IMG/VR virus record: IMGVR_UViG_2740892233_000017
Origin: a virus
Taxonomy: Duplodnaviria > Heunggongvirae > Uroviricota > Caudoviricetes
Direction: 5' to 3' (one strand)
Length of the DNA stretch: 11,797 nucleotides
The position numbers are program-made. Positions 6,001 to 9,000 of the stretch are shown one piece after another (within the stretch, counting starts at the first letter, position 1; each line of letters begins with the position of its first letter).

Positions 6001-9000
6001 ACCGGAGAGCTGGTTGACGCTTCCGGGATTTTCCGAAAATTATTGGTTGACGAATCTTTATTTTCCCGAAAGTTTCCGGACTGAAGCATGGCTTCGCGGC
6101 AATCGTTCCAGCCTGTAGCGTATGCAGCCGCTTTGCTGCTGCCTTCAACTGGCGCATCCTGCCAATACATTTCTTCCGGCACTATCGGCGCTGGAGGGGC
6201 GGCAAATAGATATCCGCCAAAGTCAGGAAGCTCTCTAATGGCCTGTACGAATTTTTGTTTGCCTACGTCAACCCCTAATGGGTAATGAGCTATAATCTTT
6301 GCCACCGGCTCTGCTTCCAGCGATGCCAGCGCAATCCGTGCCAGCTCTTCCGCTTCTTCTGCTGGAAGCACAACGTTGCTACCCGGTCCGTATGTTTCGC
6401 GCCAATGCTGGATTGTCAGCAGTCGATCTTTGGTAAAAGTGGTCATAGCTATTTCACCTTAATCTCAACATTTCGCAGCTTTAGCTCTACTGGCAGGTCT
6501 GACTTTCCTGTTAATGCTAATGCGAGATTTTCTGGAGTAGTGAGAACAGTTATTGTTTTCCCCCTCGCCAGACGAATAATCATGTGTATCTCGCTATCGT
6601 CACATGCTCCTGGTCGAACAATTGAGATTTGTCCGTTCATCTCACTCTCCTTTGATGCGAATGCCAGTAGCGCGGATTGCATCGATGACTTCAGAAACTT
6701 TGTATGCCATTACCGTTTGGTAATCATCGTGAAAATCTGTTCGATGNNNNNNNNNNCGGGCGTTCGGAATAAAGGAGCCTGACGTAGATTATCCAGTGAC
6801 GGTAGTCGAGGCTAAGGGCTTTCTTAAACTCATACCCACGTCTGCGGTAGTTATGAATCAGCCATTCGGCCTGTTCTTCAGTGCAGGGATCGTGCTGATA
6901 CCAGTCATATTTGAATGTGTGAGAACACCGCCCTTGCCTGCTGGCAGGGGCGATATCAGAATTGTGATGTTTGGTATTGTGCGCCATCGGTTTTCTCTGC
7001 TGGCGCAGCAGGTGCCAGTTGTTCAAGCTGGCGTGCGGCAATATTGTCTCTGATTTCTGTTGTCGTCAACAGGCAACGTGCTATCATCGAATGGTGTTCT
7101 ATCCTACTCCGTGAGGTTTACCATGCGTACAACCCAACAATTCAGCATTACATTAACTAACGAAATGGCTGACATGGTGCGCGCCCGTGTGGCTTCCGGT
7201 GCCTATGCTTCAGAAAGCGAGGTCATTCGTGAAGGGCTTCGCGCACTGAATGAGCGCGATAAAGCAATCGAAGCGTGGTTAACGCATTCAGCCGCCCCCT
7301 CTCTTGATTCTATCCGCGAAAATCCAAACAACGGACGCTCCATTTCACAGGTTCGCGCCGCGATTCGATCCGGGAAGTAATCTGCATGACATATGAAGTC
7401 ATCATTACTCCTGAGGCCGAACAACAAATAATCAACCTGCACAGGTATATAACGGAGAAAGCAGGGAACGTCATTGCTGACAATTATGCCAATGCGCTTC
7501 TTGATTATCTTGATGGGTTTTCTACATTCCCGCATCGGGGCAATAAACGCGATGATATTCGCCAGGGGATGCGGGTAACTCATTTCCGCCACAGAACGAT
7601 TATTGCTTTTGCCGTTGATAGCAGAAAAGTCTTTATTGTCGGTATCTATCATGGTGGGCAAAGTTATGAAACCGATTTCTTATAAACTTTTACCCACATC
7701 ATTCCGGTGTTAGAATTAACCGTCCGCCCCCTCTCTTACTGGCGGATTCGTAGGCTATATAAATCAAAGATCCCGGCTCATGTTTATGTCGGGATCTTTT
7801 TTCGGCGATTTATCCCCAGCGGCAAATCGAATACACCACCAGCGCCACCGCCATCGCAATTCCTACCGTTGTGAATGCTTCAGGCCAGGTCATCGTAAAA
7901 TATCCTCCACGCTTATCAGTCCGTTCCGCTCCAGATAACTCATCGCCTTATCCGGTAATTTGCAGTCTGGCTTCGCTTTCCTCAGTTGCCAGGTTAACTG
8001 CTTTACCAGCATGGTTAACTCATCGACCAGACGCTGATATCCCACTGGTTTGTATTCATGCAATTTACCGGCTGGCTCTGCTGCCAGCGATACCAGTGCG
8101 ATTTCCAGAACAGCAATATCCATCTTATATGTGCGGATGATGTCATGGTCGATTGTGCCCGGTATGCACAGTCTCTGTGTTTCAATAGTCTCCTCTGCGT
8201 GAGCTATTAACTGCTCTCTGGTAAAAGTCGTCATGCCGTAGCCCCTTCTTGATATTTTTCAAACCAGAACACAACTGGGTCAGATTTCATTTCAACCAAT
8301 CCCATACGAACCAGCGCTTTGCCTTTCCCGGACGCAAGGAATTCACGACGACCATCACTGATAATTCGCCGATAATCTTCCAGACTACTGCAATGCTTGT
8401 GCAGATTGCATGGGTGGCATGCCGGAACCATGTTGGATATATCGTCACGTTCCTGGTGAAGCATATTTCCATCAAAACGAATGACCGGTTTTACATGGTC
8501 TGCATGCCACTTTTCGCCAAGTTCGCAGCCGCAATAAGCACAGCGACCGCCGAACTTCATGCGCAGCTCTGCACGTTGTTTTTTCGTCAGTGCCATATCA
8601 GCTTTCCTTATACGGATTAATTTTATTGTGCAGTGTGCTGAACGACGCCCACACCACGTCGTTATACAATTCAATAACTGGCTCAATTATTTTCACGATA
8701 AACCAGACCAGTAATAGCGGGGGTATCGGTATCATCAACACGATAAATATAATGAGAAACAAAAATTCTGTCGCTCTACTTTTTCTCGGATATTCTTTTC
8801 TGAATAATGTAGTCATTTCTTACCGCCCTTTCAGGCGGCCTCCTGATGTTTTGAGGGTGCAGAAATCCCTCCGGTTAAGGATTAAATTTTTAACTAAATT
8901 TAATTATTCAGGCGCGATAAGCTGTTCCGCACAATCCAGCAATGCTTCTGTCGCTTCCTTAAGCGTTACTGTATCGCTATCATCCAGTCCTGCAACTTTT

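Follow-up and report, generated by a model that had tools for sequence, protein, structure and literature searches.

A conserved 27-codon reading frame of Shiga-toxin-type prophages as the probable gene for a phage membrane microprotein

The window analysed here, a stretch of 11,797 nucleotides of viral DNA (IMG/VR record IMGVR_UViG_2740892233_000017, Caudoviricetes), carries on its minus strand, at positions 7810-7893, an open reading frame (ORF) of 27 codons that is very probably a real gene translated into a membrane microprotein. This assignment draws on the ORF reading itself, on intact homologues, on a low ratio of nonsynonymous to synonymous differences (pN/pS) and on a block of sequence identity that runs from the Shine-Dalgarno (SD) sequence to the stop codon. 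From 7893 down to 7810 the ORF reads ATG ACC TGG CCT GAA GCA TTC ... CGC TGG GGA TAA, with the stop TAA at 7812-7810, and gives the 27 amino acids (aa) stated in a preliminary description of this DNA. No second in-frame start for the ORF is found in the window. We hold any particular target of the peptide with much less confidence than the claim that the microprotein is real.

Conservation of the reading frame and its boundaries

Homologues were gathered by tblastn in phage records and by degenerate DNA-pattern scans of IMG/VR, and the alignments were headed by a natural 40-aa variant of the peptide. Exactly 27 codons were kept in 218 related loci from the pattern scans and phage records, representing 78 unique DNAs and 47 unique peptides, and length, frame, start and stop were conserved over the 78 DNA variants. 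Because 218 loci are held at exactly 27 codons with a protein-type substitution pattern, the ORF is open beyond what chance would give. Conservation of the frame in homologous prophages had been named in the preliminary description as the check on its proposal; when run, this comparison came out in favour of a gene.

The pooled Nei-Gojobori pN/pS over codons 8-27 was 0.33 in the ORF frame, compared with 1.11 and 1.35 for the two remaining sense frames and 1.17 and 1.42 for two antisense frames. Silent changes included GGA/GGG, GCG/GCT/GCA, TAT/TAC, TCG/TCA and CGC/CGA, and the homologues in 933W, TH18, BP-4795 and PhiR12_4 carry many synonymous changes. The residues W3, P4, G11, L18, Y21, S22, I23, C24 and W26 were near-invariant, and the position of the stop was fixed while its identity varied between TAA and TGA. 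Diverged copies were similar in length and character (933W, MTWPEAFANVGTVMAVVLVVYSICRWR; BP-4795, (M)MNWPEAFTAVGVAIAVAFILYSLFRWG; PhiR12_4, MSWPDAIVTLGMVFAAAFVVYSICRWG; SJ46, MSWPEAFAIVGVAMAIAAIFIFWG; also TH18), with length and hydrophobicity kept at 59-67% amino-acid identity. Length variants were mostly multiples of three nucleotides (nt): -6, -6 and -12 nt (25, 25 and 23 aa) and +24 and +45 nt (35 and 42 aa). About 3 of some 225 enterobacterial-type loci selected by pattern were not intact, one through a frameshift and two as longer ORFs. The pattern of substitutions shows purifying selection acting on the protein sequence that the ORF encodes.

Individual variants were also recorded. In P0072 the helix is expanded in frame by an (Ala-Met)n run (...GIAMAMAMAMAMAVAL...) derived from a GCGATG repeat, and P0017 has an in-frame tandem duplication of 15 codons of the N-terminal half; these expansions suggest slippage-prone sequence that stays in frame. 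In Shigella phage POCJ13 (locus 1201-1284) codon 3 is changed, and in phage vB_EcoS-689R5 (locus 1474-1584) a single nucleotide is deleted after codon 2, an out-of-frame ORF of 36 aa being annotated there instead. The POCJ13 and 689R5 alleles may be pseudogenes or sequencing errors.

The limits of the conserved sequence were examined as mean pairwise identity over 123 unique segments of 264 nt. Identity was 0.36-0.42 at positions -90 to -31 relative to the ORF, 0.47 at -30 to -16 and 0.65 at -15 to -1, rose to 0.83-0.89 over codons 8-27 and 0.92 at the stop codon, and was 0.33-0.38 at +1 to +90. By this profile the conserved unit consists of the ORF's own ribosome-binding site plus its 27 codons, bounded by SD and stop. 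Upstream, 38 distinct C-termini belonging to four unrelated classes precede the ORF, and the ATGA overlap is kept behind them. These classes include DUF551 (ending ...PPQEVNQ), an L0139-type protein (...IEQEVNR) and EaA (...KKGMNQ), and every class supplies both the TGA inside ATGA and a GGAGG-type motif within its last codons. Downstream, at least 15 unrelated sequences follow the ORF, many of them hairpins: hok/sok at 53 loci, the parE hairpin of the window at 16-18 loci, other GC-rich hairpins, and another gene. In complete E. coli genomes the blastn matches span just the ORF, which lies beside DUF551, pyrophosphohydrolase-domain and other genes. The cassette of SD and ORF is mobile, having been shuffled among many gene contexts with its start joined each time to the preceding stop. 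In 933W the homologue follows L0139 with an ATGA overlap and precedes hokW/sokW. One protein annotated as a 'Hok family toxin', P0112, is a chimera of the first 15 residues of the microprotein with the C-terminal half of Hok, presumably the product of a deletion that fused two adjacent small hydrophobic genes.

In the window, the ATG of the ORF (7893-7891) overlaps the TGA (7892-7890) of an upstream ORF of 114 aa, as had been described, and the resulting ATGA (7890-7893, minus strand) is a putative site of termination-reinitiation coupling, of the kind that recurs behind the 38 upstream C-termini. The translational coupling proposed in the preliminary description gains support from the ATGA with a GGAGG-type SD behind four unrelated C-termini and from the ATGA in 17 of 27 distant family members (see below). 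The SD sequence GGAGGA (7903-7908, minus strand) lies within the final codons (..VEDILR) of the 114-aa gene, with 9 nt between it and the ATG (TATTTTACG). The spacing had been called ideal; it is usable, yet at the long end. Elsewhere, an identical ORF has GGAGGT 6 nt before its start.

A bidirectional hairpin terminator (7767-7802, both strands) separates the microprotein gene from parE, which converges on it. Its arms, AAAGAUCCCG...CGGGAUCUUU, occupy 7767-7799, and the hairpin begins 10 nt past the ORF stop, not the 8 nt given earlier. Its folding energy is -17.6 kcal/mol (z -2.8) on the minus strand, where the U tail, UUUGAUUUAU, is interrupted, and -21 kcal/mol (z -4.9) on the plus strand, where the U6 tail is clean; 16-18 related loci have this sequence downstream of the ORF. 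The hairpin is thus primarily the intrinsic terminator of parE and a weaker terminator for the microprotein transcript. A simple terminator scan did not pick up the hairpin at 7767-7799 because its loop is long.

The wider M[T/S]WPEAF family

The ORF product begins with the heptad MTWPEAF (residues 1-7), and searches for this motif with Thr or Ser at position 2 recovered 27 distinct non-enterobacterial members of 21-36 aa, from viral contigs with GC contents of 0.30-0.67. The layout of the family is M-[T/S]-W-P-E-A-F followed by a hydrophobic stretch, often with a Trp near its end, and a short tail rich in K/R (for example MSWPEAFLGAVIAVCVAWVYVTAIKNKDD; MTWPEAFAHVGSMFGWAAIVWAIAWAIRGR; MSWPEAFVAAVAIIAVTAFFIIIILKGLG). 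The way in which the search was built makes the heptad invariant among both the 47 enterobacterial and the 27 distant peptides. Matches to the real motifs numbered 47 for MTWPEAF (with the third base of the Pro codon restricted) and at least 120 for MSWPEAF, compared with 2 for MTWEPAF and 1 for MWTPEAF, permuted controls of equal degeneracy among whose matches none was hydrophobic; the enrichment was more than 20-fold.

The ATGA overlap on an upstream ORF was present in 17 of the 27 distant members, and nine of the 27 overlapped the next ORF by 4 nt. Their C-terminal tails together contained 36 K/R and 12 D/E. Identifiable neighbours in the wide family were early or recombination genes (RecT, YqaJ exonuclease, MazG, GapR-like and AAA_24). 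One member is annotated in Achromobacter; all are 'hypothetical', and no family entry for these ORFs was found in the databases searched. The ORF of the window shares the features of the family in its heptad, its 27 aa, its hydrophobic core, R25, the ATGA and its location among ea genes. We place it, by sequence, in a wider and so far uncatalogued family of such phage microproteins, of which it represents the enterobacterial branch. A bolder idea, which we put forward tentatively as a possibility, is that the M[T/S]WPEAF peptides are one ancient, early-expressed family across temperate phages of very different bacteria, in which the heptad, lying at the extracytoplasmic face, would dock onto one conserved host membrane machine (e.g. 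a component of the divisome, a protease or a translocase).

Nature of the product and alternative readings

The preliminary description of the product as a hydrophobic peptide is borne out by a 19-residue stretch, A6-C24, with a mean Kyte-Doolittle value of 2.11, preceded by one acidic residue and followed by one basic residue. After infection or induction, the early-left promoter would drive transcription of the gene along with the upstream ea genes, and ribosomes ending the 114-aa gene would re-initiate at the ATGA. Termination-reinitiation is an established mechanism for such overlaps. The product is predicted to insert in the inner membrane as a single helix comprising about A6-C24. By the positive-inside rule its topology would be N-out/C-in, so that MTWPEAF would face the periplasm and R25 the cytoplasm; the basis for this is the charge distribution only (E5 versus R25, and the excess of K/R over D/E in the family tails). 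The peptide may then use the invariant interface motif to bind a conserved host membrane protein and modulate it in early phage development, rather than simply kill; the role of membrane modulator is an inference.

Several observations weigh against a translated membrane microprotein. The antisense frame that shares its wobble positions with the ORF has a pN/pS of 0.30 and is open in 77 of the 78 variants, so the strand cannot be chosen by pN/pS alone. The retrieval patterns demanded an intact N-terminal motif, which biased the set towards intact copies and left codons 1-7 uninformative. Disrupted phage copies exist in POCJ13 (TGG to TAG) and 689R5 (-1 frameshift), and the protein collection holds several more frameshifted or fused forms. 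The distance between SD and ATG in the window is 9-10 nt. The topology, the target and any phenotype of the product are likewise inferred. No match to the peptide turned up in supplementary data from two ribosome-profiling studies of enterohaemorrhagic E. coli (PMC4765031, PMC5597208), in which cultures were uninduced and such sequences may not have been listed. As the true coding frame, the antisense frame was rejected: it has no conserved start, its first start being a GTG at 7871, and it is a shadow ORF that runs through the terminator, the microprotein ORF and the 114-aa gene.

The preliminary description had raised the possibility of a toxin, and a small type I toxin (like Hok, Ibs, TisB or DinQ) that depolarises or permeabilises the inner membrane beside other addiction modules would share the size, hydrophobic helix and basic C-terminus of the microprotein. 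Hok/sok directly follows the ORF in 53 of 114 IMG/VR loci, parDE lies beside it in the window, and the natural chimera P0112 joins the N-terminal half of the microprotein to a Hok C-terminus. We nevertheless consider such a toxin unlikely, and the suggestion found no support in the searches made. The peptide matched neither Hok (PF01848) nor another toxin family in Pfam, NCBIfam or PADLOC; no Rfam antisense RNA family was found at 7000-9000 on either strand (E<=1); and a consensus scan, the only promoter search made, found no sigma-70-like promoter on the minus strand at 7894-8745 or antisense to the ORF. The ORF is coupled within an operon, whereas type I toxins have their own tightly repressed mRNA, and in 933W the annotated sokW, mokW and hokW are found on the downstream side of the homologous ORF and apart from it, with no overlapping mok-like leader frame. 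The neighbouring toxin-antitoxin modules are interchangeable and start exactly past the ORF stop, so their adjacency reflects a mosaic junction. Up to seven copies occur per genome, and the most conserved feature is an N-terminal motif of polar-interface type, not hydrophobicity alone.

It is very unlikely that the act of translation alone matters, with the ORF serving as a relay or leader frame, or as a modulator of termination or read-through at the hairpin 10 nt on, and the peptide functionless. The nearly universal ATGA overlap with the upstream gene would fit this, as would the 4-nt overlap with the next gene in nine of 27 distant members and the many enterobacterial copies that stop just short of a hairpin, whose 5' arm would be covered by a ribosome at the stop codon. 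A relay needs no particular peptide, yet the amino-acid sequence is under purifying selection, and the heptad, hydrophobic helix and basic tail persist over 30-67% GC, where the DNA is unalignable; the downstream contexts are also too diverse for a single regulatory logic. That the block is conserved as non-coding DNA, such as a short homology patch for recombination of lambdoid modules in which the open frame is incidental, is improbable in the extreme. Lambdoid phages do exchange modules at short conserved sequences, and the block lies exactly at mosaic junctions with unrelated sequence on either side. Its variation, however, is concentrated at the synonymous positions of one frame, the stop is fixed in position and varies between TAA and TGA, and length variants are mostly multiples of three. 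Homologues at 59-67% amino-acid identity hold their length and hydrophobicity, and the motif family is present in phages with unrelated DNA.

The preferred reading, a membrane microprotein, was compared with known systems. Hok/Gef, Ibs, TisB, DinQ, ShoB and ZorO resemble it in being very small (19-52 aa) and prophage-borne, with one hydrophobic helix and a charged C-terminal end, and Hok/Gef genes often adjoin a homologue, as with hokW/sokW after the 933W copy; these toxins differ in being without the N-terminal WPEAF motif, and there was no family match. KdpF, AcrZ, MgtS, MgrB, PmrR and CydX are single-pass peptides of 29-49 aa that bind a larger membrane protein and are often missed by annotation. 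KdpF, like the microprotein, is encoded by a small ORF inside an operon; there is no homology, the best match to TIGR02115 scoring 14.7 bits (E 0.024) against a cut-off of 26.85. Unlike these small regulators of E. coli, the microprotein is phage-encoded and has no consistently linked partner gene. The E protein of phiX174 and LysM of phage M are short phage peptides in which a membrane helix binds a conserved envelope enzyme (MraY and MurJ, respectively). This resemblance is of kind only, and E and LysM are late lysis genes of small lytic phages, whereas the microprotein gene lies in the early region of temperate phages with their own holin-endolysin cassettes.

A further comparison, by position, is with the small accessory proteins of the lambda early-left/exo-xis region (Kil, CIII, Ea8.5 and Orf60a/61/63/73), which adjust the physiology of the host or the choice between lysis and lysogeny (PMC8614690, PMC3824215, PMC7093339). 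Their genomic neighbourhood is the same as that of the microprotein and their early transcription presumably so. They differ in being soluble or amphipathic proteins of 47-93 aa, and none is a 27-aa transmembrane peptide; the word 'transmembrane' has 0 occurrences in PMC8614690, which reviews the exo-xis region in lambda, 24B and 933W.

Genomic setting, prevalence and significance

The upstream gene (7890-8234, minus strand) encodes the hypothetical 114-aa ea-region protein (WP_000206830.1 / YP_009907875.1), which belongs to phrog_660 (E 8e-43) and gave no Pfam family. It overlaps by 4 nt the next upstream gene of the same operon, an HNH endonuclease gene (8231-8596, minus strand; RefSeq WP_001229296.1; Pfam HNH, E 3e-6). 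The endonuclease also gave weak-to-moderate PADLOC matches to PtuB (Septu) and PDC-M01B (best E 3e-8), which probably reflect just the common HNH domain. On the plus strand, the parD-parE toxin-antitoxin module (7123-7685; 7123-7380 and 7386-7685 in RefSeq) lies outside the conserved block of SD and ORF and converges on the ORF, as previously described. Within 7060-7380 (plus strand) the start of parD is called inconsistently: a mechanical ORF from TTG gives 106 aa, RefSeq gives 85 aa from 7123, and ArgO145 has 68 aa. A promoter-like site with an extended -10 is present in the parD region at 7060-7087 (plus strand).

Over 7600-8300 the window shows 100% identity with prophages of several E. 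coli strains, among them O26:H11 11368, O103 and O145, as well as with phage ArgO145 and two Stx2a phages (Stx, Shiga toxin). In those sequences the leftward early 'ea' array runs through Ea22-like genes, DUF4014, the HNH endonuclease and the 114-aa protein to the convergent parDE. The ORF sits at the distal end of this leftward early array, in the variable part of the exo-xis region of a lambdoid prophage of the Shiga-toxin type. A run of 10 Ns at 6748-6757 marks the window as a scaffold join. Positions 1-6746, which hold an integrase, an antirepressor, an MT-A70 methylase and DUF551, match at 100% the left end of the wrbA-integrated Stx prophage of O104:H4-type strains, and the right part matches prophages of the O26/O103/ArgO145 type. 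No complete genome was found to carry 80% of the window in one place.

The 81-nt ORF was present in 1610 of 5426 complete E. coli genomes (~30%), at 3064 places with at most seven per genome, 163 of them on plasmids. By tblastn, the peptide was found in 94 phage records, including 933W, VT2-Sakai, Stx2 II, Min27, BP-4795 and the P1-like SJ46. A strict scan of genome contigs for the N- and C-terminal patterns gave 12 matches, only in E. coli, Shigella flexneri and what were probably chance occurrences, and the enterobacterial form looks restricted to Escherichia/Shigella among species representatives. Diverged copies lie on P1-like phage-plasmids, namely E. coli plasmids of 94-101 kb (~85% nucleotide identity) and Salmonella phage SJ46 (locus 1201-1275, the 24-aa MSWPEAFAIVGVAMAIAAIFIFWG), so the gene is not limited to lambdoid prophages. 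A lambda homologue was looked for between ea22 and ea8.5 and was not found. Two records that matched are odd in their own right. Actinobacillus phage vB_Apl-pPE4 (PP818812.1), with A. pleuropneumoniae as its recorded host, contains DNA that is 98-100% identical to the lambdoid ea region and hok of E. coli, and vB_EcoM_TH18 (ON075799.1), a 134-kb record classed in Vequintavirinae, has lambdoid genes of EaA/ea22 type; these could be due to host mis-assignment or chimeric assembly.

The preliminary description called the gene unannotated. This is so for E. coli O26:H11 11368 in RefSeq and for the records of phage ArgO145 and 933W, but the term fits only annotation of the RefSeq kind; GenBank/nr does contain the exact 27-aa sequence, under the names 'bacteriophage protein' and 'hypothetical protein' (AOM45384.1, ASL59396.1, FORC28_2400; 79 contigs). 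A large protein collection holds about 100 variant clusters, all unnamed, and some variants are called from an upstream in-frame ATG as the 40-aa 'MULTISPECIES: hypothetical protein'. The minimum gene length of Prodigal is 90 nt, and the ORF with its stop is below it at 84 nt. Searches of Pfam, PHROGs, NCBIfam, PADLOC and PDB sequences returned no match to the peptide that was significant or above a curated cut-off, and Rfam gave nothing for the region; the only hit of a Pfam hmmscan at E<=0.1 was the sub-threshold DUF883_C. The motif was not found as a peptide in the searchable literature. The exact sequence is clustered with 121-aa DUF551 proteins, and membership in DUF551 was rejected, there being no similarity and no Pfam match. 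The entries named 'DUF551, partial' (e.g. GGES-MTWPEAF...) are the microprotein frame extended upstream at contig ends, an artefact of labelling and clustering.

Small membrane peptides of phages and bacteria are a known class; the present ones form an uncharacterised and largely unannotated family of unusual breadth with a sharply defined motif. Some 30% of complete E. coli genomes carry the gene, frequently more than once, and it sits in medically relevant Stx prophages and in the well-studied Stx phages 933W and VT2-Sakai. The reference records examined nevertheless leave it unannotated, a clear case of gene-caller length cut-offs concealing conserved genes. It would add a membrane-active player to the exo-xis/ea region, which is known to influence lysogenisation and the induction of Stx prophages, and its invariant seven-residue motif offers a testable handle on the role of small phage membrane peptides. 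If the tentative proposal of one ancient family is true, the M[T/S]WPEAF peptides would be a general device for host takeover or for the choice between lysis and lysogeny, hidden until now by the length limits of gene callers.

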